64,000 nucleotides of DNA from Tricharina praecox. Taxonomy: Eukaryota. The notes under the pieces were generated by a model that saw nothing but the letters and a program-made list of their open reading frames with translations, was not told where the DNA came from and did not search any database. The stretch is taken from the NCBI RefSeq assembly GCF_024521635.1, contig NW_026250413.1:806001-870000 (forward strand). Reading direction: 5' to 3'. Positions 40,908 to 56,995 of the stretch are shown piece by piece. Each line of letters starts with the position of its first letter. The stretch's first letter is position 1. Made by a program: the position numbers and the translations under genes.

Positions 40908-41095
40908 CTCACACGGCCAGAGATTTTGCCCCCCCTCCCGCAAAGATAGTATCTGAGATTCGATCAGTGGCTGGGGGTGGCTCAGTCAATTAAATCTATT
41001 GTTTGACATAGGGTTGATTGCTTATTCTCAGCCACAGATCTAATCTCAAATAATGTTTTTGTAGGTAAGGGGGGCAAGATTTCTGATCATGTGAG
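40908..41095. mobile_element. Fold-back MITE with TA target duplication (Tc1/mariner type)
   Basis: TA|CTCACACGGCCAGAGATTTTGCCCCCCCT ... AAGGGGGGCAAGATTTCTGATCATGTGAG|TA; inner arms are also complementary. Confidence 0.8.
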
Positions 41096-41159
41096 TAGTT
41101 CTGTCGTTGCACCAAGAGTCGTGACCACCCATCGTACCAAAAATGAGCGTGTGAATAAT

Positions 41160-41388
41160 TGTTACACCCCAACAGACGCTCACGTAGTTACAGCAAGAGC
41201 GGTTCGTTCGGAAGTGATTGAAACACAGTAATAGATAGTCATAGCATAGAGACGATTAGGGAGGAATGAGCAAATAAGATGCAGACTCTACACAGTGATC
41301 AGTGATGCGGGCGATGCACATTAAAGTTCGATACGGCTGAGACAGCCTGAGGCAGTGCATCATGGAACACCGCAAAAAGATACGCTGA
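41160..41388 (+). mobile_element. 5' part of a diverged family-B-like LTR (LTR-E), outermost visible layer of the nest
   Basis: Starts TGTTACACCCC (B: TGTGACACCCC); block GAGCAAA..CAGACTCTACACAGTGATC..GATGCGGG aligns with the B and C LTR U3. Confidence 0.7.
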
Positions 41389-41560
41389 TGTAACGGCACA
41401 GTCGGGCAAGGCTCCAGTTAGCGTAGTCGGGCGGGGGATCGGGTTCTGGGTTCGGCAGAGGCAAGACGGGTTCAGGGGACAAGGTGAGGCAGGGCTCAGT
41501 GCAGACGGCAACTGAGAACAGAGGCAGGGACAAGGACTACGGCGCAGACGGCAGCCGAGG
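41389..41560 (-). mobile_element. Truncated family-A variant LTR (U5 end), interrupted by TRIM-D
   Basis: TGTAACGGCAC..GGCAGCCGAGG matches the first ~170 bp of 41974-42483, with variant alleles shared with LTR 63059-63568. Confidence 0.9.
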
Positions 41561-41973
41561 TGTCACAGTTCAGAAATCCTGGCCTTAAGTAGCTACTGGG
41601 ATGATGGCCATCAGCCATCAAAATACCTTTTGGTCGAGTGGTATAGTACTTTCCCAGTGTACTTTATTACAGTTTGATGGCTGCAAAGGTCATGAGTTCA
41701 ATTCCCACTGTGAGCAGTTACATTCCTCTGCTGCAGCGTTGTTCAGGAATTGCATGGCTTACAGTGAGTGACGGTTAATGATTCTTATCATGAACTGTCA
41801 CTCATTGGGGGTTAACTACTTGAAAGCTTCCTGGAGTAAGCCCCTAAAGAGGGGATACTGTCACAGTTCACAAATCCTGGCCTTAAGTAGCTATTGAGAT
41901 GATGGCCATCAGCCATCAAAATACCTTTTGGTCGAGTGGTATAGTACTTTCCCAGTGAACTTTATTACAGTAG
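41561..41973 (+). mobile_element. TRIM-D: non-coding miniature LTR element with tRNA-type Pol III promoter boxes in the LTR (LTR1 41561-41722, internal 41723-41858, LTR2 41859-41973 truncated)
   Basis: Direct repeat starting TGTCAC, LTR1 ending GTTACA; PPT AAAGAGGGG-ATAC immediately before LTR2; box A TGGTCGAGTGG 41631-41641, box B GAGTTCAATTCC 41694-41705. Confidence 0.8.
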
Positions 41974-42380
41974 TGTAACGGCACGGTCGGGCAAGGCTCC
42001 AGGTAGCGAAGTCGGGCTCGGAATCGGGTTCTAGGTTCGGCAGAGACAAGACAGGTTCAGAGGACAAGGTGAGGCAGGGCTCAGTGCGGACGGCAACTGA
42101 GAACAGAGACAGGGACAAGGACTACGGCGCAGACGGCAGCCGAGGCAAGGACAGAGGTAACAGTGATTGAATTAACAAGTTGTTGCGTGAAGAACTAAGT
42201 ACAGAGGGGTAACGGCCCGTTTATATAGGAAACCCTCCACTTCTTCTCGCCACCTGACAATAACCGTGGGCGTGTGCCAGACCCTGAGAAATCCACCTTG
42301 CCAATACCCCGCTTCCGTGACTCATACCCTGCGCAGCCGCACTACCCCTGCTTACTGCACACAGCCCCAATTCCTCCGGC

Positions 42381-45300
42381 TCATTCCTGCATTGCGGCCC
42401 GCGCAGCCCCTTGCACTGCCCCCGCGCTGCCTTCCCACCCCTGTTCCGACTCTTCCTCGAACGTCCCGTCGCGAGCCGTGACAGTAGCCCCTCCTAAGGC
42501 TCGAGTTCCCACGAGAGCAAGTTGAACTGGTCCAGGCTTCGTTGGGTAACGTTGGTGGAAGTCGTCCACTGCCTGTACGTCCACAAGGTTCTCCTCAGGT
42601 TCCCACGTCGGTGCCGTGAAACCCCTCCACTTGACTAGGTACTGGAGTCTTCCCCTCAGCGTTCTGCTGTCCAGCACTTCCTCCACCTCCCATTCTTCTT
42701 GGTCGTTCACAATTACCGGTAACGGTGGCGGCAGGATCTGGCCGGGGAGGGGGTCGTCGGCCGATGCATGGAGGAGGGACACTGGGAAGGTGCGGTGCTT
42801 TTGGATGGTGTTCGGGATGTCCAGTTCGTATGCGTGGGTTCCGATGGCTCGGGTAATCCGATAGGGTCCGTGGTGTTTATTTTCCAGTTTTCGGCTTGGT
42901 CGCTCCGTCCGCCAGTTTCGGCCGTCCACCCATACCATGTCTGTGAGACTGGGACGGGTTTGTGTCGTCGGAGTCTATAGTAAAATCGAGGATAGAATAA
43001 AAGTCAGGGATTTCGATAATTCACAACGGAATAATCTTAAGGGTGTTTGTTCGATGGTTTGTTCGGTGCGATGATTGTAGTTTGTTCGGTTGCCCGCTCG
43101 GTTCGACTTATAGTCGTCCCGATCCTCAGCACGTGATTCCTCTAGAGTGCGGCCTAACGTGGCTCCGTTGCTTCCTTTGCATCGGAGTTCCGCGGCCTAG
43201 CCTTGAGTCGTCGTCAGCTCTCTTCGGATAGTCTTCTCGACTAGGCAGGTGGTAAACACCACGCGCCCAAGATAGATCGGAGTTTCCGAGCAATTATCTC
43301 CCTCATGCGCCGGCAGAGTTCTTCGCTCGTAGTTGTCTGCCCCCATCGGTCGATGTTCGATTCTCTCGTCATAACAGTTTTTTCCTGGATCGGAGTTCCT
43401 ACTGCGGGGCCCTATGATCGGAGATCTCAAAGTCCTCTGGACTGTTATCCCGATCTCCCGCATCTCCGATCACTGTCTAGACTCTGGAATCCGTTTGCTC
43501 CCTCCTTCCTATCCTGTCCTTGATCGCTTCTAACTATCCTTTCGGCTCGCAACTCTATTCTAATCACCCGAACTATTTAATCACATCTCTTGCGACCGTC
43601 GTGACCTCCGATACCTATCGGGGTGTCACAATGTCTCCAGGCTGGAAGGCCGGTGCGTGGGTTCGGTGCCGGTCCGTGTTGTCCTGCTGCCGTGCTTGGG
43701 CGTAGCGCATCTCACTTCGGGCAACGTCGTGGATCTGTTGGAGTCGCTCTGCCGCTGTCTGCGCCTGTCGCTCTTCGTTCGTGTCGGTTCGGATGTCAAG
43801 CTCGAAGTCGCAACGGGGGTGGTAGCCTAGGTTAGCAAAAAACAGGGACAGGGTAGTGGTGCCGGATGCCTGGTTGTTGCCAGCGAACTCTGCTAAGAAT
43901 AGGTAGTCGACCCAGTCGTCCTGCAGGTAGCTCACGTATGCCCGGAGGTGTTGTTCCATTACCGCATTCATCCTCTCTGTTTGACCGTCTGTCTGCGGGT
44001 GGAACGCCATGGAGAGCCGTGCGTCGATCTTGAGGCAAGAGCATAGATGTTTCCAAAATCGTGAGGCAAACTGGGGGCCCCGGTCCGATACGATGGTGTC
44101 GGGTAGTCCGTGGTATCTGAAGATCCGATCGCAAAATAGTTCGGCGAGTCCCTCGGAGGTGATGGTCGTGTTGCAGGGGAGCAGGTGTCGTTGCTTGGTG
44201 AGGCGGTCCACAAATACGCAAATGGCATCGAATCCTTTTGAGGGAGGGAGTCCGGTTACGAAGTCGACGGATATATGTTGCCAGGGTTTCTCGGGTACTG
44301 GGAGTGGGCGGAGCACACCGTAGGGGGCGTGTCTTGTTGCTTTGGTTCGTCTGCAAGTGTGGCAGTTCCTCACGAATCAGTCAACGTCCTTCCGCATCTG
44401 GGGCCATTAGTAGTTCCGGGCCAGGAGTTCCAAGGTTTTTGCTCTTCCGGGATGGCCCATAGCCGGCGGGCCGTGGTGGTCATGGATCAGGCGAAGTCTG
44501 AGTGGGTCGTGTTCAGGAACGTAGAGGCAATCGTGGTAATGTAATTGTCCGTTGACTTCGCTGCAGTCGGCGAGCGAGATGTCCTTTGAGTGGCGTGTTC
44601 CGTTTCTGAGCAGTTGGAGGATCTTGTTCGGCACTGGATCTGCCTGATATGCTTTGGTTATCAGGGTAGAGAGTGCGGGACGGGGTACTTCCAACGGGTT
44701 GGTTGCTGACAATCTCAATTCTTCCGGCAGGTTTTGGGGCTTGAGGACTGCTTGTTGGTTCGCCAGCAGTCTTTCATCCCCCTCCTTAGGGAGGTCTCCG
44801 GACCTCCTTGTCAATGCATCCGGTTTCCCTCCTGCTTTACCAGGTCGATAGACGATTTTGAAGCCGAAACGCGACAGGAATTCCGACCATCGTGCTTGCC
44901 GGCGGTTGAGCAACTTGGTTGACATGAAGTATTCCAGGTTCTTGTGGTCGCTCAGGACTTGGATCGGGTGCGCGGCTCCTTCAAGGTGTGGTCTCCATTC
45001 TTCAAAGGCCCGAACAATCGCCAACAATTCTTTGTCGTAGATTTCGTAATTGCATTCCGCCGGGGAGTGTTTCTTTGAATAGAAGGCAACTGGATGCAAG
45101 ATTCCATCGTCGTCGTACTGGGAGAGGATACCGGCCGATACGTAATCCGAGGCATCAGTTTCCACCACTATTTCTCGGTCGTAGTCGAAATGTCGGAGGG
45201 TCGGGGCGCTAGTGAAGGCAGTCTTGAGAGTGTCGAAGGCTTGCTGTTGGTCAATACCCCATTCGAAGGGGACGTACTTCCCATTTTCCTTTTTTGTCAT

Positions 45301-47060
45301 TGCCGTCAGGGGAGATACCACCTTAGAGTAGTCCTGGATAAAGCGTCGGTAGAAGTTCGCGAAGCCCAAAAAACACTGCACATCCGTTACCGTCGTCGGT
45401 TTTTCCCATTCGAGTACGCAAGAGACTTTGGCAGGATCCATCTTAATACCCTCCGTGGTTATGATCAGGCCCAGGTATTTGACCTCCGTCTGGTGGAAGT
45501 GGCATTTCTCCGGTTTTAAATGCAGTCCGGCCGATGAAAGGGCGCGTAGCACTTTGGTGACCTGTGTTCGGTGTTCTTCCAGTGACGCGCTGTAGATAAA
45601 GACGTGATCTAGGAAGCGGTACAGAAGCCGTCCAGGAACGGTCGTAAAACGTCGTTGATCAGGGCTTGGAAGTCGGCTGGCGCGTTGGTTAGCCCGAAAG
45701 GCATTACCAATGATTCGAAAAGTCCGTAGCGGGTCCGGAAGGCCGTTTTCCATTCCTCCCCTTCTGCCATTCGTACCAGGTTGTAAGCACCGCGGATATC
45801 CAGTGTTGTAAAATACTTTGCACCGGACAGTCGCATCAAGGTTTCCTGGAGCAGGGGAAGTGGGTAGCGGTTCTTGATGGTTCCTTCGTTCAGGCCTCGA
45901 TAGTCCACACACAGTCGCAAGGAGCCGTCCGACTTTTTGACAAACAGGATCGGTGATGCCGCTGGTGATGAGGACGCACGGATAAATCCCTTGCTCAGAT
46001 TGTCGTCAAGCCATTCCTTGAGTGCGACCAGCTCGGTTTTGGAGAGCGAATAGAGGGGTCCGTAAGGGGGCACAAATCCTTCCTTTAGTGGGATCTTGTG
46101 GTCGTATTGCCGATGGGGTGGTAGGTTCTGCGCCAACCTTTCGGAGAAGAGGTGGAGAAATTCGTGATATTCGGGAAGAATGTGGGCGGTTGAGCTCTGT
46201 TTTTCTTCAGATAGAACTTCATTGATCTCCCTCAGGGTCGTGGTGAAGATGGTGAGGTTCTCCTTTTCTGCCATCTGCTGGAAAGGCTTCATTCGGAGGG
46301 CTGAGATTCTGACCGTGGGTTTTCTCTGGTTAGCATCCTGCTGGTGTTCATTGATCTGGGGAGACGTAACGCATCGGGCCACGATGTCGCCGGCCCCCGC
46401 GCTTACCGCTGGCTCCTCCAGAGCTACGTTTGGTGCGAGAGCGTAAGGTAGTTCCGGTGGGTCTGTGGTGATACCGTGGGCTACTGTGGGTACCGTATTG
46501 CAGTGTGCAGTGCAATATTGGGAACCAAAGGTGAGGGTGCGTGAGCTGAATCGGATGGCCACGTCGTGTAGGTCCGTCCAGGGAATTCCGAGTACGATTG
46601 GGTAGTGCCCCAGTTTGGTGACGAACATCGGGAGTTCTTCGTGGTGCTCTTGGATTGACAGGGTGGTGGTGGCAACGTGTGTGATGTCGCCGGACTCGAT
46701 GGGGCGGCCGTCGATGACCTCAAGGGCGCGCGGGGATTCAAGGGGTACAAGGGGTAGGTTGTGATGGCGGGCGAAGTCTTTGTCTACAAAGGCGATTCCG
46801 GTTGCTCCACAATCGATCAGCGCATGCGTGGCAATGGTTTTGTCACCAAACGAAAGGTTACATAGTACAACGAGATGTTTTCCTTCCATTGATGATTCCT
46901 CCACTACCATCCCAGACACTGACAAATTGGACAAACGAAAATGAGTAGAAAAGGGAGAAAAAGACTTATCCTGGGTACGACCAACAACGGTGCCATCAAG
47001 CAGTTGTTGGTCTAGGCTTTTCCCGACTGCCCTTGGTTGTCGCCACAATTCTGGTTGCAA
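42381..47060 (-). pseudogene. pol: A1 pol (PR LIDCGA, RT, RNase H, integrase, GPY/F, chromodomain), broken by a frameshift ~45610, stops at 44407 and 44377, and a solo LTR
   Basis: ORF pieces 45609-47060, 44407-45912, 43615-44373, 42381-42938. Confidence 0.95.
42942..43630 (-). mobile_element. Solo LTR of family B inside A1 integrase
   Basis: 689 bp TGT..ACA, near-identical to 48826-49514 and 55506-56193; TSD ATGTC at 42937-41 and 43631-35. Confidence 0.97.
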
Positions 47061-48202
47061 TTGTGGTATGGGTGGTCGGGGGTCAGGGTTCCAGGTTGCT
47101 CGTGCATCAGCTGTGCAGCTGCGGCACGAAAAGGGTTCCGATTCTTGTTCGGGCAGTGTCGGGCCATGTGGCCACTGCCTCCACAGTATAGGCAGCGACC
47201 CTCGCGGAGACGCGCAGCTCGTTCTTGATCAGAGATCTTGCGACTGTTCGCGCTGAGGTCCATAGCCCCTGGGGCTGTTCCGGTTGCAGTGGTTGCCGGT
47301 GGTGTACTGTTATGGGTTTGATTCCTCGGCGGAGCTGGAGGTTGCGGGGTGTGGTTTTGTCGCGGGGGGTTGCGGCGGCCTTCACGGAGTTTGAGGGCAC
47401 GTAGCTCGGAATCGAGGCTCTGGCAGAGAGCCACGAACTGGTTGTAGGTGAGTCCCTGAGTGCGGCCCACCAGTTGTCGGTGGAGCTCGATGGAGACTCC
47501 TTCGCGGAGTGCATCGAGTTTGGCATGCTCGTCCCAGTTCAGCTTGGACACGAGTCTTTGAAACTCCGCAAAGTAAGACGTAAAGTCCTTGTTCCCTTGC
47601 TTGAGGCGGTGAAGTTCGGCGCGTGCGGTGGCTGCTGGGTCGGGATCGCCGAAGGCGTTTTCGAGGATGGTGACCATGGCATCGGCGTCGGTCAAGCTGA
47701 TCACGTTGTTCTGGATGTACGGCAGTATCTGGGCTTGGGCACGGCCTTCGAGACGGTTGAAGGTGTAGGCCATTCTAAGTGCTGGGGACGGGAAATGGGT
47801 AGGGTCGCTGTATAGTTTGAGTCGAAGCTGGGCAACGAACCCTTCGAGCTTCTCTCGAGTGCCATCGAACATGGCTGGCTCCGGGACGCGCTCGGCGCGG
47901 CCCTGGGGTTGGGTTTCTAGTGTGGCGAGACGGTTGGCGATACGACGGGAGTTGGCAAGTTGTTCTTCGAGGTCGTCTATTCGCCAGGTGGGTGCTGCTG
48001 TGGGGGATTGGGTGATTGCACGGGCTATGATTTGGAACTGGCTATACAACCCCGACAGTGTTGCATTGTTGGCGGGTGAGTCGTGGTTAACGATGATCTC
48101 GAGTTGTTCGTAGACGGTGGCGGGAATTTCTCGACAGTAGGGGGGTGCCACCAGTACTTCCTCCTGCTGGGGAGGGTCTGGTGCTGGGGTATTGGTGGCC
48201 AT
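47012..48202 (-). CDS. gag: A1 Gag (396 aa, CCHC knuckle)
   Basis: PEPAMFDGTREKLEGF, LKQGNKDFTSYFAEF, CLYCGGSGHMARHC; open ORF. Confidence 0.95.
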   Translation of the reverse strand: MATNTPAPDPPQQEEVLVAPPYCREIPATVYEQLEIIVNHDSPANNATLSGLYSQFQIIARAITQSPTAAPTWRIDDLEEQLANSRRIANRLATLETQPQGRAERVPEPAMFDGTREKLEGFVAQLRLKLYSDPTHFPSPALRMAYTFNRLEGRAQAQILPYIQNNVISLTDADAMVTILENAFGDPDPAATARAELHRLKQGNKDFTSYFAEFQRLVSKLNWDEHAKLDALREGVSIELHRQLVGRTQGLTYNQFVALCQSLDSELRALKLREGRRNPPRQNHTPQPPAPPRNQTHNSTPPATTATGTAPGAMDLSANSRKISDQERAARLREGRCLYCGGSGHMARHCPNKNRNPFRAAAAQLMHEQPGTLTPDHPYHNCNQNCGDNQGQSGKA

Positions 48203-49656
48203 GGTTCTTCGCTAGGTGGAGAGATGGGCGACGCAACAAAATGTAACGGCACGGTCGGGCAAGGCTCCAGGTAGCGAAGTCGGGCTCGGAATCGGGTTCT
48301 AGGTTCGGCAGAGACAAGACAGGTTCAGAGGACAAGGTGAGGCAGGGCTCAGTGCGGACGGCAACTGAGAACAGAGACAGGGACAAGGACTACGGCGCAG
48401 ACGGCAGCCGAGGCAAGGACAGAGGTAACAGTGATTGAATTAACAAGTTGTTGCGTGAAGAACTAAGTACAGAGGGGCAACGGCCCGTTTATATAGGAAA
48501 CCCTCCACTTCTTCTCGCAACCTGACAAAAACCGTGGGCGTGTGCCAGACCCTGAGAAATCCACCTTGCCAGTACCCCGCTTCCGTGACTCATACCCTGC
48601 GCAGCCGCACTACCCCTGCTTACTGCACACAGCCCCAATTCCTCCGGCTCATTCCTGCATTGCCGCCCGCGCAGCCCCTTGCACTGCCCCCGCGCTGCCT
48701 TCCCACCCCTGTTCCGACTCTTCCTCGAACGTCCCGTCGCGAGCCGTGACACCGTGCTTGGGCGTAGCGCATCTCACTGCGGGCCACGTCATAAATCTGC
48801 TGGAGCCGCTCTGCCGCTGTCTGTATGTGAGACTGGGACGGGTTGGTGCCGTCGGAGTCTATGGTGATATCGAGGATAGAATAAAAGTCAGGGATTTCGA
48901 CAATTCACAACGGAATAATCTTAAGGGTGTTTGTTCGATGATTTGTTCGGTGCGATGATTGTAGTTTGTTCGGTTGCCCGCTCGGTTCGACTTATAGTCG
49001 TCCCGATCCTCAGCACGTGATTCCTCAAGAGTGCGGCCTAACGTGGCTCCGTTGCTTCCTTTGCATCGGAGTTCCGCGGCCTAGCCTTGAGTCGTCGTCA
49101 GCTCTCTTCGGATAGTCTTCTCGACTAGGCAGGTGGTAAACACCACGCGCCCAAGATAGATCGGAGTTTCCGAGCAATTATCTCCCTCATGCGCCGGCAG
49201 AGTTCTTCGCTCGAAGTTGTCTGCCCCCATCGGTCGATGTTCGATTCTCTCGTCATAACAGTTTTTTCCTGGATCGGAGTTCCTACTGCGGGGCCCTATG
49301 ATCGGAGATCTCAAAGTCTTCTGGACTGTTATCCCGATCTCCCGCATCTCCGATCACTGTCTAGACTCTGGAATCCGTTTGCTCCCTCCTTCCTATCCTG
49401 TCCTTGATCGCTTCTAACTATCCTTTCGGCTCGCAACTCTATTCTAATCACCCGAACTATCTAATCACATCTCTTGCGACCGTCGTGACCTCCGATACCT
49501 ATCGGGGTGTCACACCATCTCCCCTCCCACGAGGCTTCGGCCCGAAGCACCCAAGTCCTCGCCTTTATCCTAACTTGATAACTGTGGATGAAGTCCTCCA
49601 ACCCCTTCATCCTACTACCTGCCCGAGTTCGAGAAAAACCATATGGGAAAAAACTC

Positions 49657-52600
49657 TTACTCATCTGTGAGCCGGTAGTCCCTCGGCGCATCGGGATTTT
49701 TGCGATGAAACTCGCGTAGCTTTTCCCGACCGCCTACTGAGAAGTTGTCGAATGGCTCGTTCGTCCAGCCCCGTCGTTCGGGGTAGTTGAGCCATTTGAC
49801 GAGGTAGAGCACTCGTCGACCTTTCTTCGAGCTGCCCATAACCTCATCGACGTCGTATTCTTCGTTGCCTTCCACATCATCGGCCTCTCGTAAGATTTGA
49901 GAGGGATCCGGTGGTGCTCGGGTGCCGGCTCGGAACGGTTCAACGAGCGAGACGTGAAAGACATTATGAATCTTCCACTTCCTTGGCAGAGTGAGCTTGA
50001 CAGCGAGCGGCGATACGATCTTCTCGATTTGGAAGGGACCATGGTTCTTGTGGTCCAACTTCCGCGAGGGTCGGCGGGTTTGAATGTTCCGCCCATTGAG
50101 CATTACCAAGTCTCCTACTTGATAAGCCGGTGCCTCCTGACGATGTTGATCTGCATACTTGCGCATTCGTTCGCGCGTTCGTTCGAGGGTCTTGATGTTT
50201 TCCTCGTGGACTGTATGCATCCAGTGAGCGTAGACCTTGCTGGCGGGGTTGAGAGAATTTGCCGCAGCAGGGTTTCTCGCCGACGGGTGGTATCCGAAAT
50301 TCGCATAGAAGGGCGACATTCCGGTTGCCGATGTAACCGAGTTGTTGTAGGCAAACTCAGCCATCGGTAGGAGATTCACCCAATCGTTCTGTTCGTAGTT
50401 GACGAAGGAGCGGAGGTATGCTTCGATCGTCTGGTTGAGGCGTTCGGTTTGTCCATCCGTCTGTGGGTGGAACGCTGTTGACATCCGGGGCTTAATGCCT
50501 AGCAGCCGGATGAATTCTTTCCATGTACCCGAGGTAAACCGTGAGTCTCGGTCCGACACTATGTCTGCTGGTAATCCGTGAAAGCGCCATATCTCGCGGG
50601 CAAAAATCTTCGCGAGATCCTCGGCTATCTTTCCATCCTTAGGTAGGGGGATGAAATGCGCCATCTTGGTGAAGCGGTCGACGACCACCCATAGCTGGTC
50701 GCATCCGTTGGATTCCGGTAGGTCGGTAATGAAGTCCATGGCTATTGATTGCCATGGGGTGTATGGTAACTCGAGGGGATTGAGTAGTCCATACGGCTGG
50801 TGCCTTGTTGCTTTGTCCTTCTGACACTGCGCGCAACTCCGGACGAAGTCTATAATCTGCTCGTCCATCTTTGGCCACCAGAAATTACGTCGGATAAGTT
50901 CGATAGTCTTGTCCTGGCCCATATGCCCCGCGACTTTCGTATCGTGTTCCGACTCGAGGATGTGTCTGACGAGTTCCTTATCGTCTGGTACCCATAGCCT
51001 TTCTTTCCTATACAGGCACCCCTCTTCCATCCTCAAAATCCTGGCCTTTCGGCCCATCCTGCCAGAGTCCCTACTCTCGGCGGCCAGTTCCCAGGCCTTT
51101 CGGCCCTCCGACTCAGTGTCCTTCTGAGCCGCGTCCTCGTTCGTGTCCTTGATGCTGCTCAGAGCCTCCTGATACCCAGCATCTTCCTTTCCTGCCTTCC
51201 TGACCCAACCCAGAAATTCTTCATTCCACTTTGGCACGGGGATTGAATGTAGCCGAGTTGACGAAACCAGAAACACGGTGCTCTCGCCTCCGGTGCTGAT
51301 TGATGAAACTCTCGGATCGCCGCCTGCAAAGTGTGATTTATGCAGGATCGTCGTAATCGGCTGATCTTCACCCCCCCCTTTTTCAGGGCGGTACTCCGGG
51401 CGCCTGGATAATGCGTCAGGCTTGCCGTTCTGGCTGCCGGGCCGGTAGTAGATTTTGAAGTCGATGCCAGCGAGTTCTTGTGCCCATCTCGCCTGCCGTC
51501 GATTGAGTACTTTCGTGGTTGTGAAGTACTGAAGGTTCTGGTGGTCGCTGTACACCTGGATCTGGTGTTTTGCTCCCTCAACGTATTGCCGCCAGCGTTT
51601 GAAAGAGTCTACTATCGCGAGTAGTTCCTTATCGTGAATCTCAAAGTTGATTTCGGCTGGGGTAAACTTTCTTGAGTGGAACGCAACTGGGTGTAACTTC
51701 CCATCCTCTGTCCTTTGAGACAGGACCGCGCCCAACGCGAAGTCCGAAGCGTCGGATTCCACCACGACAGGTAATTCTGGGTTGAAGTGCCCGAGAATCG
51801 GTGCCGTGGTGAACCTAGACTTCAGCTCCTCGAAGGCCAGTTCCATCTCCGCTGTCCATCTCCAATCCTTCCCTTTTTCTTTTGTGCTCTCGGTCAAGGG
51901 TCTCGTGATCTTTGAGAATTCCTTGATGAAGCGCCTGTAAAAATTGGCGAACCCAAGAAAGGCTTGTACTTCCTTCAGGGACCGCGGCGCCTCCCACGAG
52001 AGCACAGATTCCACCTTGTCCTTAGCCATCTCAATTCCATCTTGGGATATCACGTATCCTAGGAACTCGACTCTCCCTGTCGACCAGACACACTTCTCTG
52101 GTGAGATTGCCAACTTATTTTCTTCCAACCTCTTTAGTACCTCGATGACTATCTTGTCATGCTCCTCGTGCGTCTTCGCATAGACGAGGAGGTCATCGAT
52201 GTACGCGACCAGTCCCAGGTCCAACATATCCCAAAATATGTGGTTAATCATGTCCTGAAACGTCGCTGGAGCGTTGGTCAGCCCAAACGGCATGACCAAA
52301 AACTCAAACAGTCCGTATCGACAGCGGAAAGCCGTCTTCCACTCGTCACCTTCTTTGATGCGGATAAGGTGATAGCCATTCTTCAGATCAATCTTGGTGA
52401 AGACTTTCGCACCCCTGACTCGGTCTTGCAACTCTGCCATGATCGGGAGTGGGTAGCGATTGGCTACGGTAATCTTGTTGATACCGCGATAGTCGACACA
52501 CAATCGGAGACCCCTGCCGTGCGCCTTTAGTACAAATAATATCGGCGCCCCGGCTGGTGATTTGGATCTTCGAATCTTGCCTGTCTGGAGCATCTCCTTG

Positions 52601-53466
52601 AGCCACTCCCTGAGGGCCTCAAGTTCTTTCTCTGACAGGGCATAGATAGGACCCCATGGAGGAGTCTCTCCTTCCTTGAGATCGATTGCGTAGTCGTAGG
52701 ACTTGTGGTCGGGAAGCTTATCGGCTGCTTCCTTGCTCATGATGTTGGCATATCGTCTGAACTTCTCCGGAAGCAGATTCATGGGTGGATCTGATTCCGG
52801 CCCAGCTGAGACGTATCCAATAATGCGAGCCTCCGAATTGTGAATGACAGACGTGTCAAGTTCCATCGGAAAGCTGGTTGCTTGTTGCAAGGTGCATTGT
52901 TCCTTGCATCGGGTGCTGGTGAAGCGAATTTTCTGTGCTTCATTCTTCCACAACCCTGTCGGTTCATGCTTAGCCATCCACCAATACGGGAGGTAGGCAT
53001 CGCAGTCGTCCAAGGGAGCCACTTCAAAGGTTTCGTTGGTGTAGTGGCTCCGGTGTTGAAGGAGCATCGGCATTGTATAATATTCCCCGGCTCCTTCCAC
53101 TATGGTTCCGTGGAAGTCCTTGATTTCCACCGGCTTGGGTCGTTGAATGAGGGGCAACCCAAGTTCTCGTGCAAGGCTTCGTTTGATGATCGGAATGGCA
53201 CATCCTGTGTCAAGGAGTACTCGGATCCGTCGTCGCTTGTACTCAGACCAGAGGAGCATCATTTCTATGATTGGTTGTGGTCCGCTGACAGGTTTTGGGG
53301 GCTTACACCCTGAGGCGCTCGGCGCGGTTGGACTCGTAGAAATAGGTTGGTCCGTTCGTCTTCGCTTATCTCTGGATTCGCTGTCGATATCCTGAGGCCG
53401 TGGTCTCTTCGTTCCGCAAACATATACACTTGGCCGTCCAGTCTGCGGAGTGCTGGGGCCGCTCAA
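49657..53466 (-). CDS. pol: B Pol (PR, RT, RNase H, integrase, chromodomain), probably expressed by -1 frameshift
   Basis: LLDTG; AYIDD; ESDASD; H..H..CAQC; MDFIT/SDRD/TERLN; YLVKW chromodomain; no ATG at ORF start (TTG). Confidence 0.96.
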   Translation of the reverse strand: MSGPSTPQTGRPSVYVCGTKRPRPQDIDSESRDKRRRTDQPISTSPTAPSASGCKPPKPVSGPQPIIEMMLLWSEYKRRRIRVLLDTGCAIPIIKRSLARELGLPLIQRPKPVEIKDFHGTIVEGAGEYYTMPMLLQHRSHYTNETFEVAPLDDCDAYLPYWWMAKHEPTGLWKNEAQKIRFTSTRCKEQCTLQQATSFPMELDTSVIHNSEARIIGYVSAGPESDPPMNLLPEKFRRYANIMSKEAADKLPDHKSYDYAIDLKEGETPPWGPIYALSEKELEALREWLKEMLQTGKIRRSKSPAGAPILFVLKAHGRGLRLCVDYRGINKITVANRYPLPIMAELQDRVRGAKVFTKIDLKNGYHLIRIKEGDEWKTAFRCRYGLFEFLVMPFGLTNAPATFQDMINHIFWDMLDLGLVAYIDDLLVYAKTHEEHDKIVIEVLKRLEENKLAISPEKCVWSTGRVEFLGYVISQDGIEMAKDKVESVLSWEAPRSLKEVQAFLGFANFYRRFIKEFSKITRPLTESTKEKGKDWRWTAEMELAFEELKSRFTTAPILGHFNPELPVVVESDASDFALGAVLSQRTEDGKLHPVAFHSRKFTPAEINFEIHDKELLAIVDSFKRWRQYVEGAKHQIQVYSDHQNLQYFTTTKVLNRRQARWAQELAGIDFKIYYRPGSQNGKPDALSRRPEYRPEKGGGEDQPITTILHKSHFAGGDPRVSSISTGGESTVFLVSSTRLHSIPVPKWNEEFLGWVRKAGKEDAGYQEALSSIKDTNEDAAQKDTESEGRKAWELAAESRDSGRMGRKARILRMEEGCLYRKERLWVPDDKELVRHILESEHDTKVAGHMGQDKTIELIRRNFWWPKMDEQIIDFVRSCAQCQKDKATRHQPYGLLNPLELPYTPWQSIAMDFITDLPESNGCDQLWVVVDRFTKMAHFIPLPKDGKIAEDLAKIFAREIWRFHGLPADIVSDRDSRFTSGTWKEFIRLLGIKPRMSTAFHPQTDGQTERLNQTIEAYLRSFVNYEQNDWVNLLPMAEFAYNNSVTSATGMSPFYANFGYHPSARNPAAANSLNPASKVYAHWMHTVHEENIKTLERTRERMRKYADQHRQEAPAYQVGDLVMLNGRNIQTRRPSRKLDHKNHGPFQIEKIVSPLAVKLTLPRKWKIHNVFHVSLVEPFRAGTRAPPDPSQILREADDVEGNEEYDVDEVMGSSKKGRRVLYLVKWLNYPERRGWTNEPFDNFSVGGREKLREFHRKNPDAPRDYRLTDE

Positions 53467-55466
53467 AAATCCTCCGGCTCACTCTCATTCCTTTCCCAGA
53501 ATGGAGGGGCCTCCGTCATTGCTTCATCCTCCACCACAACCGCCGCAGCCTTGTGTTGCTTGGACCTCGGTCGAGTGGGTTCGGCATCCTGGGTGTCCCG
53601 CTTTCTCTTTGTCACGGATGACACCTTTGGACTCTCGGGGAGTTCGGTACCCGCGACTGTTTTTCTGGCGTAGCATTGGAAGGTTCGGTGGCCGTCTCGT
53701 CCGCAACGCCAACAGTCGCACTTGGATGCTTTGTGGGCATCGATCTCCTTCTGGGGAACCCCTACCAGAGCCTCCTTTGCTCCTGCGTAGATGTCCCCTT
53801 CCCTTGTCCTTCCCTTCCTGACTCCTGTTGCTTCCTTGGCCTTTCGGCCCTCCGGGGACTCCCCGCTTTCCTTGCGGCCCCCGGGGTCTCTTCCCTTTCC
53901 TTGGCCCTGCCGGCCGTTGCCAGGTCCCTTCCGGTCGCCGCCGGAACCCTGGCTACCCGATCCCCCTTTCCTCATTGCCCTTGCCTTTTTCAGCGCGTCC
54001 CGTCGTTCCACATGGTTGCCAGCCCTGAGCACCGTTTCCAGGAAGTCTTCATCGTCTTCGTAGGGTCCATGGTGCTGGTTGAAGCACATATCAACGATGT
54101 CGGTAGTCATGGCCTGGTTGACTATGTCTTGTAGCGGTTCGCCGGTGGCGCGAGCGATCATGTTGAGCGATCGGAAGGAGGTCATGTAAGCCTGAATGTC
54201 TCCTTTGTATTCGAGGGCCCACATCCTTCTTAATGCGTTCGCTCCTTCCTGCGTGTCGCGGTACGCCTCCTTGAGTGCCTCTTGGTACGCCTGCCAGGTA
54301 TCTTCCAAGTGTAGCTGCCTCAGGCTTTTTCGACGGGCCTGATGCCATTCTGCCGCTGTCCCTTCCAGTCGGGATCCCACCCACACTATCTTCTGCTGCT
54401 CGTTTGTCTCTGGGTGGAACTCAAGATATTCTTCAACTGAGTCCCACCATGGACGGAAGGCTGTTCTTTGCTTGCCATCGAACGGCTTGGGCTCTTTAAT
54501 TTTAAGCTTGATGGCCCTCGGGTTCGATGCGGAGACGGCAGCAGCGATGATCCGAGCGAAGCGACTCTCTTCGTCTTCGTCGTCTTCTCTTGGTAGCGGA
54601 GCGTGTCGGTGACGGGGCGGCGAACGACGCGGCAAGGGGATGGAATCGTCATCATCCGATGGTCCCTCATCCGAGGGATCACCTCCAAGGTTAGTCACCG
54701 GACGTCTTGGGGGTGGAGGAGGAGGGGACATTCCTGCACCTGCCGGAGTTTCCCTTGTTGCTGACCTTTCTGCCCGCGATCCTCCTCTTGGGGTAGTGTT
54801 TACCCACTCCGGGGCCTTTTCCTTCGCCTTCCCTGTCCTTACCTCTACAGCCTTCAATTTTTTCTCTGCTCGAGCGATTTTTTCCTTGATTCGCTGTTGC
54901 TCCTTGTAGAGGTATTCTGCCTTCTCTTCCTGTTTCCCTGCCCAAATTTCCACGTTGCGGTTGTACACCGCTTGCTCCCTGCGTTGTTCGACTTGCGCCG
55001 TTTCGAGGAACACGATGGCGTCTTGTAGCCGAGCGTTTGCGACGCTTTGCAACTCGCAGTTGTCTTCGTCTTTCTGGTTACGTTCTCGAATGACTGCCCA
55101 TACGTCGCTGCTCAGGGCGTGCGTCGCGTTCGCTACCGTTGACACCTCGGTTCGAAGCCATTCTGTATTCATTTCGGCATTGTGAGCGTAGAGGTTGTAC
55201 ACATACTTGACCCCATCGCAGAGTTGTTCGTAGTTCCTTCTGATTTCCTGCATTCGGGAGTCCTCTTCGTTGAACTTCTGATCGCATGCTTGGTAAAGCT
55301 GGCGCAGGTCTCTTTGTGCCGTTTGGTATTGGTGGTTCATCAGCCTGAGCCAGGCTGCCGGGTTTCGTACTTCGACGGTTTCGGATGCTTGCGGGATGCT
55401 AACGAGCGCATTGCTCAGGGTCTGAGAAAGTTCGAGGCGGAGCATGTCGAGGTTTGAGGAGGACAT
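53463..55466 (-). CDS. gag: B Gag (667 aa; coiled-coil N-extension, CCHC knuckle)
   Basis: IKEPKPFDGK, SRLEGTAAEWH, CWRCGRDGHRTFQC. Confidence 0.93.
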   Translation of the reverse strand: MSSSNLDMLRLELSQTLSNALVSIPQASETVEVRNPAAWLRLMNHQYQTAQRDLRQLYQACDQKFNEEDSRMQEIRRNYEQLCDGVKYVYNLYAHNAEMNTEWLRTEVSTVANATHALSSDVWAVIRERNQKDEDNCELQSVANARLQDAIVFLETAQVEQRREQAVYNRNVEIWAGKQEEKAEYLYKEQQRIKEKIARAEKKLKAVEVRTGKAKEKAPEWVNTTPRGGSRAERSATRETPAGAGMSPPPPPPRRPVTNLGGDPSDEGPSDDDDSIPLPRRSPPRHRHAPLPREDDEDEESRFARIIAAAVSASNPRAIKLKIKEPKPFDGKQRTAFRPWWDSVEEYLEFHPETNEQQKIVWVGSRLEGTAAEWHQARRKSLRQLHLEDTWQAYQEALKEAYRDTQEGANALRRMWALEYKGDIQAYMTSFRSLNMIARATGEPLQDIVNQAMTTDIVDMCFNQHHGPYEDDEDFLETVLRAGNHVERRDALKKARAMRKGGSGSQGSGGDRKGPGNGRQGQGKGRDPGGRKESGESPEGRKAKEATGVRKGRTREGDIYAGAKEALVGVPQKEIDAHKASKCDCWRCGRDGHRTFQCYARKTVAGTELPESPKVSSVTKRKRDTQDAEPTRPRSKQHKAAAVVVEDEAMTEAPPFWERNESEPEDF

Positions 55467-56995
55467 TTTCGATAGAAATCGGTGACTGTAACCTTAAGAT
55501 TATAGTGTGAGACTGGGACGGGTTTGTGTCGTCGGAGTCTATAGTAAAATCGAGGATAGAATAAAAGTCAGGGATTTCGATAATTCACAACGGAATAATC
55601 TTAAGGGTGTTTGTTCGATGGTTTGTTCGGTGCGATGATTGTAGTTTGTTCGGTTGCCCGCTCGGTTCGACTTATAGTCGTCCCGATCCTCAGCACGTGA
55701 TTCCTCTAGAGTGCGGCCTAACGTGGCTCCGTTGCTTCCTTTGCATCGGAGTTCCGCGGCCTAGCCTTGAGTCGTCGTCAGCTCTCTTCGGATAGTCTTC
55801 TCGACTAGGCAGGTGGTAAACACCACGCGCCCAAGATAGATCGGAGTTTCCGAGCAATTATCTCCCTCATGCGCCGGCAGAGTTCTTCGCTCGAAGTTGT
55901 CTGCCCCCATCGGTCGATGTTCGATTCTCTCGTCATAACAGTTTTTTCCTGGATCGGAGTTCCTACTGCGGGGCCCTATGATCGGAGATCTCAAAGTCCT
56001 CTGGACTGTTATCCCGATCTCCCGCATCTCCGATCACTGTCTAGACTCTGGAATCCGTTTGCTCCCTCCTTCCTATCTGTCCTTGATCGCTTCTAACTAT
56101 ACTTTCGGCTCGCAACTCTATTCTAATCACCCGGACTATCTAATCACATCTCTTGCAACCGTCGTGACCTCCGATACCTATCGGGGTGTCACACTGTACC
56201 TGTTGCTCTTCGTTCGTGTCAGTTCAGATGTCAAGCTCAAAGTCGCAACGGGGGTGGTAGCCTAGGTTGGCAAAAAACGGGGACAGGGTGGTGGTGTCGG
56301 ATGCCTGGTTGTTGCCAGCAAACTCTGCCAAGAATAGGTAGTCGACCCAGTCATCCTGCAGGTAGCTCACATATGCTCGGAGGTGTTGTTCCATTACTGC
56401 ATTCATTCTCTCTGTTTGACCGTCCGTCTGCGGGTTGAACGCCGTGGAGAGCCGTGCGTCGATCTTGAGGCAAAAGCATAGATGTTTCTAAAATCGTGAT
56501 GCAAACTGGGGGCCCCGGTCCGTTACGATGGTGTCGGGTAGTCCGTGGTATCTGAAGATTCGATCGCAGAATAGTTCGGCGAGCCCCTCGGAGGTGATGA
56601 TCGTTTTGCAGGGGAGCAGGTGTCGTTGCTTGGTGAGGCGGTCCACTAACAAGCAAATGGCATCGAATCCTTTTGAGGGAGGGAGTCCGGTTACGAAGCC
56701 GACGGAGATATGTTGCCAGGGTTTCTCGGGTACTGGGAGTGTCACGGCTCGCGACGGGACGTTCGAGGAAGAGTCGGAACAGGGGTGGGAAGGCAGCGCG
56801 GGGGCAGCGCAAGGGGCTGCGCGGGCGGCAATGCAGGAATGAGCCGGAGGAATTGGGGCTGTGTGCAGTAAGCAGGGGTAGTGCGGCTGCGCAGGGTATG
56901 AGTCACGGAAGCGGGGTACTGGCAAGGTGGATTTCTCAGGGTCTGGCACACGCCCACGGTTTTTGTCAGGTTGCGAGAAGAAGTGGAGGGTTTCC

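Follow-up and report, generated by a model that had tools for sequence, protein, structure and literature searches.

A complete TRIM with a putative Tf1-type self-primer in a nest of chromoviruses in Tricharina praecox

The stretch 41561-41969 of the window (the whole 64 kb of Tricharina praecox DNA analysed here) is a complete, real TRIM of 409 bp, made up of two 111-nt LTRs and a 187-nt interior. Its longest open frame is 60 codons, which agrees with the original prediction of a miniature non-coding LTR element. Like other TRIMs, it has short terminal direct repeats, a short non-coding interior with its primer-binding site (PBS) plus a polypurine tract (PPT), and LTRs that outnumber interiors. 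Unlike them, it has a PBS that is complementary to its own LTR and not to the 3' end of a tRNA. A target-site duplication (TSD) is absent at this copy, the letters being CGAGG on the left and GTAGT on the right; apart from this, 41561-41969 has the structure by which TRIMs are defined. It is probable, in our judgement, that this TRIM primes its own reverse transcription and is served in trans by a Tf1/sushi-like chromovirus, most likely the family called A below or a close relative of that family.

The limits of the element can be observed directly. Comparison of the window with itself reveals two direct repeats (113 nt, 96%), one beginning at 41561 and the other 298 bp further on, at 41859. 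The pair 41561-41671 and 41859-41969 agrees at 107 of 111 positions; the similarity continues for 2 nt past 41671 and 41969 and then stops. Elsewhere in the 64-kb window the repeat does not occur, nor is there another copy of bases 41674-41722. The repeated part is 111-113 nt and not the 162 bp that had been proposed. Nor is the second repeat cut short by the neighbouring element A1, as had been supposed: it is complete and ends in ...ATTACA at 41969, the same point at which the first repeat (41671) and contigs from other runs end. The interior is indeed free of ORFs, but the length of 136 bp given for it has to be raised to 187 nt. The parts of the element are listed here; X1, X2, X3 and X11 denote four public runs, whose contigs were aligned to 41000-42600.

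41561..41671, plus strand: 5' LTR of 111 nt, TGTCAC...ATTACA, delimited by its identity to 41859-41969 and by contig borders in X11 and X1
41612..41622, plus strand: predicted self-primer of 11 nt, LTR positions 52-62
41631..41641, plus strand: motif resembling box A, within R/U5 of the LTR, putative in function
41673..41683, plus strand: putative self-priming-type PBS that begins 2 nt past the LTR, recognised by complementarity and fold
41692..41716, plus strand: T-arm-like hairpin plus 8 nt, in the interior, with a box-B-like motif at 41695-41705
41762..41807, plus strand: strong hairpin in the interior (15 + 5 bp), from the fold of 41723-41858
41846..41855, plus strand: polypurine tract AAAGAGGGGA, followed by TAC (41856-41858) and the 3' LTR, from reading the sequence
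41859..41969, plus strand: complete 3' LTR of 111 nt, delimited by identity to the 5' LTR and by a diverged X1 contig
41970..41973, no strand: 4-nt joint GTAG between the TRIM and A1, from reading the sequence

The priming of the element, which the original prediction had left unexplained, seems to be accounted for by its own 11-nt self-primer/PBS pair in a layout of the Tf1 type. Bases 41612-41622 are the exact 11-nt reverse complement of 41673-41683, which begin 2 nt past the LTR. Complementarity of at least 11 nt to the first 15 post-LTR bases is reached by only 1 of 20000 shuffles of the LTR. As RNA, 41612-41683 has a minimum-energy fold of -26 kcal/mol (z -5.6), and none of 200 shuffles is as stable. 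In this fold, the 11-bp stem between primer and PBS closes a U5 stem-loop. Complementarity, its rarity by chance and the fold are all direct observations. A further 6-bp pairing is possible between 41625-41630 and 41685-41690; a stretch shifted by one base folded to 5 pairs at -3.6 kcal/mol. We count against the self-priming explanation that the U3 of the TRIM would be 51 nt long and has no clear TATA box. One X1 contig joins 41622, the last base of the self-primer, through TT to the LTR start at 41561.

The remainder of the interior is also strongly folded (41723-41858: -53.1 kcal/mol, z -4.9). The 3' arm of the hairpin at 41762-41807 contains ACTGTCAC, 8 nt that correspond to the last two spacer bases and the start of the LTR. 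A role in packaging or dimerisation is conceivable for this hairpin, which may alternatively be what is left of an LTR end. Its match to mir-5728 in Rfam was rejected, at 27 bits against a cut-off of 100, and five further hairpin-type Rfam matches of the 121-nt query, at 12.6 bits or less, were likewise rejected as family members.

The first 41 kb of the window are unique, gene-dense DNA with eukaryotic housekeeping genes (SPT16, Mcl1, VPS11, RuvB-like, COG4 and GH85). The host looks fungal, and in an atlas look-up of one of its genes Ascomycota are the most frequent phylum of the top cluster. The unique DNA is followed by a nest of LTR elements that extends from 41389 to 64000 (22.6 kb), as delimited by self-BLAST. 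Besides the TRIM, the nest contains:

41389..41560, minus strand: older family-A LTR (last 172 nt), antisense to the TRIM, 93-95% identical to the four other A LTRs in the window
41974..48751, minus strand: A1, a family-A Ty3/gypsy chromovirus with 510-bp LTRs that are 99% alike, from self-BLAST and minus-strand ORFs
42938..43638: extra family-B LTR copy inside A1
48826..56193, minus strand: family-B chromovirus with LTRs of 688/689 nt, TGTGAC...TCACA, and two ORFs of 676 and 1273 aa
56740..63568, plus strand: A2, a family-A copy, from self-BLAST; its 3' LTR is at once the 5' LTR of the next copy, which leaves the window

Both families belong to the Ty3/gypsy chromoviruses and carry gag, RT, RNase H, integrase, an SH3 domain of the Tf2-1 type and a chromodomain. 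For family A, the domains were scanned on A2, which is 99.5% identical to A1 over 5091 bp. The family-A copies in the window are frameshifted and fall into four ORF pieces. In family B, all these domains are found on the two long ORFs, and this family looks more intact than family A.

Families A and B share the self-primer/PBS layout of the TRIM, and family A looks self-priming, as had been suggested for the putative helper. In family A, the pair is 9 nt long (LTR positions 296-304 against post-LTR position +3), a length attained in 47 of 5000 shuffles, and the self-primer lies 39 nt downstream of a TATA box. The family-B pair is 12 nt long (LTR positions 588-599 against post-LTR position +3) and is reached by none of 5000 shuffles. 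The R-U5 fold of family A is not unusually stable (z +0.53; 141 of 200 shuffles), which counts against the self-priming explanation. The PBS of the TRIM differs from that of family A at 5 of 11 aligned positions. Three of these differences fall inside the 9-nt pairing of family A, and there the self-primers differ in the complementary way.

One contig of X11, a run whose type we guess to be RNA, ends right after 42177-42179, in the 3' LTR of A1, in sequence that we take to be an Illumina adapter. This end is 1-3 nt from the complement of the family-A 9-nt self-primer (42180-42188). It would agree with cleavage by RNase H after the primer, or with a transcript that begins just downstream.

The likeness between the TRIM and family A is concentrated at the junctions, where it can be seen directly. 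The PPT/LTR-start junction, aligned on the LTR start and taken as 16 nt on the PPT side and 10 nt of LTR, shares 21 of 26 positions with family A and 13 of 26 with family B. For the LTR-end/PBS junction, 12 of 22 positions match family A and 10 of 22 match family B. The interior beyond the PPT has no significant similarity to either family in local alignments, shuffles reaching the observed scores in 78/200, 88/200, 22/40 and 22/40 cases. The original prediction was right to call the PPT similar to that of family A, since AAAGAGGGGA-TAC precedes the second repeat, and to call the LTR ends similar, given the LTR-start junction and the TTACA end (GTTACA in family A). Because the TRIM copies the PPT/LTR-start junction of family A together with this TTACA end, an A-like helper is likely, and so is mobilisation by an A-like element, as had been proposed for a user of the family-A machinery. 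The A copies in the window being frameshifted, an active helper, if any, would be located elsewhere.

The arrangement of PPT and PBS around the repeats also bears on another origin, namely a local tandem duplication of 298 bp (1.4 units), unrelated to retrotransposition. Such an event would agree with the 298-bp period, with the missing TSD and with the rearranged nest of transposable elements. It is opposed by the TG...CA ends of the repeat, by the PPT directly before the second repeat and the PBS directly after the first, by junctions that resemble those of family A and by the presence of the LTR alone in other contexts in other runs. We consider it very improbable.

For the self-priming TRIM, we infer the following course of replication. 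Transcription would begin in the 5' LTR, at 41612 or slightly upstream of it, and would cross the interior and enter the 3' LTR. The first ~11 bases of the RNA (41612-41622) would fold back on the PBS (41673-41683). RNase H of the helper would then cut after the paired stretch, and the freed 3' end would prime minus-strand DNA, as in Tf1. The plus strand would be primed by AAAGAGGGGA (41846-41855). Reverse transcriptase, RNase H and integrase would all be supplied in trans by the Tf1/sushi-like chromovirus.

The model for this scheme comes from the Tf1/sushi elements. As described in passages of PMC10085805 and PMC4600332, a self-primer at the RNA's 5' end pairs with a PBS located just past a 5' LTR that ends in CA. 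Two flanking duplexes complete a three-duplex 'pretzel' RNA, and an RNase H cut frees the primer. In the fission-yeast element Tf1, priming of this kind has been demonstrated by experiment. A passage of PMC6934838 lists Maggy, Skippy, Cft-1 and Boty as self-priming, and whole clades of coding elements are predicted to be so in a passage of PMC6317226.

As in Tf1, Tf2, Tj1 and other Tf1/sushi chromoviruses, the PBS of the TRIM follows closely on a 5' LTR that ends in CA, and it has a complement of ~11 nt within the LTR, downstream of the promoter. The minimum-energy fold shows a central duplex and a U5 stem-loop, and a second duplex of 6 bp is possible; these may answer to parts of the 'pretzel' as it is described in words. 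Unlike the Tf1/sushi elements, the TRIM codes for no proteins (no gag-pol and no chromodomain integrase) and is ~12-17 times shorter, and both the cleavage and the 5' end of its RNA are putative. Since it is without coding capacity, it could only be a non-autonomous user of the Tf1/sushi mechanism.

Full-text searches of the literature turned up no account of a self-priming TRIM; such families may be present in Repbase and in the supplements of PMC10886601. In the relevant passages of a paper on bivalve TRIMs, self-priming is mentioned only as a possibility that cannot be assigned (PMC6934838). TRIMs are usually recognised by a PBS of the tRNA type, and self-priming ones are easily missed or wrongly delimited, as happened in the first reading of this DNA. 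The LTR ends, the self-primer/PBS pair, the hairpin and the PPT may together approach the minimum of cis signals needed by a reverse transcriptase and integrase of the Tf1/sushi type. A TRIM of 409 bp would be a compact substrate for self-primed reverse transcription and for the question of how non-autonomous elements track their helpers.

The identity of the transcribing polymerase is a separate matter. The original prediction assigned to the LTR a tRNA-derived Pol III promoter, which would make the element a Helenus-type TRIM (TRIMp3), transcribed by Pol III from tRNA-derived boxes A and B. Both motifs do exist. The box-A-like motif at 41631-41641 has one mismatch to the box A consensus, and the box-B-like motif at 41695-41705 has two to that of box B. 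Set against the conserved Helenus boxes TRGCY..YGG and GGTTC, the former has T instead of C and the latter reads AGTTC. Pairs of this quality are uncommon: both strands of the window (128 kb) hold 2, the present pair included, and 5 Mb of Markov sequence hold 79, or ~0.0065 per 409 nt, with motif thresholds that were set after the sequence had been seen, which weakens the argument from these counts. Counted from the first base of the self-primer, box A begins 19 nt further on, and the distance from box A to box B is 64 nt, start to start. In tRNA genes, 19 nt upstream of box A is a plausible distance for a Pol III start. The U3 is very short, and an internal promoter would help the element.

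The placement of the motifs is less favourable. Because the LTR ends at 41671, the T-arm-like motif (41692-41708) lies in the interior and not in the repeat to which it had been assigned. The box-B-like motif is 24 nt beyond the LTR end, so that the LTR does not hold a full promoter. The length variant found in two of the public runs is without the box-B region. Runs of four T occur only at 41628 (41628-41631) and 41926, which in each LTR is between the putative start and box A; this also speaks against transcription by Pol III.

Nor do tRNA models recover a tRNA here. ARAGORN at default settings finds no tRNA gene in the 64 kb, which bears out the earlier statement that this is not a tRNA gene, and in the TRIM region it finds none at default, 95% or 90% thresholds. 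At 80%, it draws a tRNA-Ser-like fold at 41627-41715, which straddles the LTR end; this can be cited in favour of a tRNA origin, but at that threshold random sequence yields 141 calls per 200 kb. ARAGORN at 50% (4 calls in 501 nt against 1582 per 200 kb of random sequence) is uninformative and was set aside. Rfam gives no tRNA match at E<=10 with either a 1001-nt or a 121-nt query. With box B outside the LTR, no Rfam tRNA match and an ARAGORN call only at 80%, the claim of a tRNA-derived Pol III promoter in the LTR is not supported.

Comparison with known Helenus elements leads in the same direction. In the parts of Kojima 2024 (PMC10886601) that describe them, Helenus/TRIMp3 elements measure 311-1263 bp, and both boxes lie within the LTR as part of a recognisable tRNA-like sequence. 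The fungal examples described there are from Pucciniales and three Agaricomycetes, with Copia partners and PBSs that match a tRNA anticodon loop or 3' end. Complementarity between the tRNA-like part of the LTR and the PBS is, in the same parts of PMC10886601, stated to be lacking. The TRIM is similar to Helenus in size, in having box-A-like and box-B-like motifs and in the existence of fungal examples. It differs in that its box B is outside the LTR, tRNA models fail, its partner would be a gypsy chromovirus and its PBS is self-complementary. Descent from a tRNA and membership of Helenus are not supported, although transcription of the TRIM by Pol III is possible in view of the motifs. As an account of the element, a Helenus-type TRIM appears unlikely to us.

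Cassandra, a plant TRIM that contains 5S-rRNA sequence according to passages of PMC10886601 and PMC10853983, is alike in being a non-autonomous miniature LTR element, and tandem LTR-interior-LTR arrays are known in such families. It is unlike the TRIM described here, in which Rfam detects no 5S-derived sequence.

It can also be imagined that both ideas are correct, Tf1-type self-priming being combined with a split tRNA-like Pol III promoter that has box A in R/U5 and box B past the PBS. We give this combination little credence. If it were true, transcription would be confined to a 5' LTR that has the interior behind it, with the self-primer as the start of the RNA. The element would then be a TRIMp3 that primes itself and depends on gypsy, outside the fungal groups for which Helenus has been reported.

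That the TRIM is not confined to the window is directly evident from the public runs. Sequence of the form LTR-interior-LTR is present in all four. The depth of the LTR exceeds that of the interior in three of the four, by 10-20x in two, where each depth adds up contigs that may stem from several organisms and does not represent a copy number. In X1, the depth is 2832 in the bin 41594-41647 against ~180-210 in 41702-41863; in X2, it is 545 for the LTR against 25 for the interior. Zero depth on parts of the A LTR in X11, and the missing cover on the unique flank in X2 and X3, are not interpreted.

The LTR also behaves as a unit of its own. Contigs of X11 and X1 begin or end at 41560/41561 and at 41671/41672 with other flanks, and in contigs 13 and 14 of X11 (1187 and 568 nt) the segment 41561-41671/2 is embedded in other sequence. 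Joints at 41671 and at 41559-41561 connect the LTR unit to varied positions of A-like LTRs. A diverged 878-nt contig of X1 aligns with 41620-41969 and continues with unlike sequence, which places the end of the 3' LTR at the same point. The diverged X1 copies (records 2 and 3) have ~84-87% identity, with 55 and 35 other letters over ~350 and 270 nt. In a length variant shared by X1 and X11, 41681-41807 is replaced by 32 other letters, and the box-B region is absent.

Contigs of 328 nt in X3 and 327 nt in X11 each consist of one 298-bp period plus ~30 nt. This fits a closed cycle in graph assembly, either by collapse of LTR-interior-LTR sequence or from tandem arrays. An X2 contig joins 41673 through AC to 41561, giving LTR-GTAC-LTR. 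Here GTAC equals the 1-nt spacer G after the LTR plus the TAC that follows the PPT. A junction of this kind would be expected from joined unprocessed cDNA ends, be it the junction of a 2-LTR circle or a genomic relic, and we take it as a sign that reverse transcription occurs.

These contigs also bear on whether there is a propagating TRIM family at all. The copy in the window might instead have arisen, once or rarely, by internal deletion from an autonomous element with the same 111-nt LTR. The 10-20x deeper LTR in X1 and X2, the occurrence of the LTR in contigs that have no interior and the much recombined state of the LTR elements in the window, with shared LTRs and missing TSDs, would agree with this. 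However, the interior is found with both LTR junctions in four of four runs, diverged copies of ~84-87% identity included, and its length variant occurs in two runs. Solo LTRs alone could account for the excess of LTR depth; for other TRIMs, counts of 529 LTRs against 144 interiors and of 1114 against 151 are given in a section of Kojima (PMC10886601). A deleted derivative is, in our estimation, an improbable explanation, and the self-priming TRIM served in trans is retained as the preferred one. Outside the four runs, a metagenome scan with a 20-nt word from the LTR gave 0 matches, and viral contigs gave 0 matches; a scan of metagenomes with the gapped primer...PBS pattern found 8 loci, none of which (0/8) is related beyond the pattern itself.

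To the left of the TRIM, the 172-nt piece of A LTR stands at the border with unique DNA and adjoins the TRIM at 41560/41561. On the right is A1, which likewise has no TSD. Neighbouring A copies have LTRs in common, and it follows that recombination has reshaped the nest. For a copy that has no TSD and lies in such a nest, integration is a putative origin.

The joint between the TRIM and A1 (41969-41974) reads ...ACA GT AG TGT.... Speculatively, it could be composed of the U5-side spacer of the TRIM and, in reverse complement, the CT spacer found after the LTR that A2 has in common with the next copy, as though two unprocessed cDNA ends had been joined head to head. At the other border of the nest, an X1 contig passes from the unique flank at 41253 through 28 diverged letters to the start of a family-A LTR. 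In this related genome, the A LTR seems to be located ~107 bp closer to the genes than in the window.
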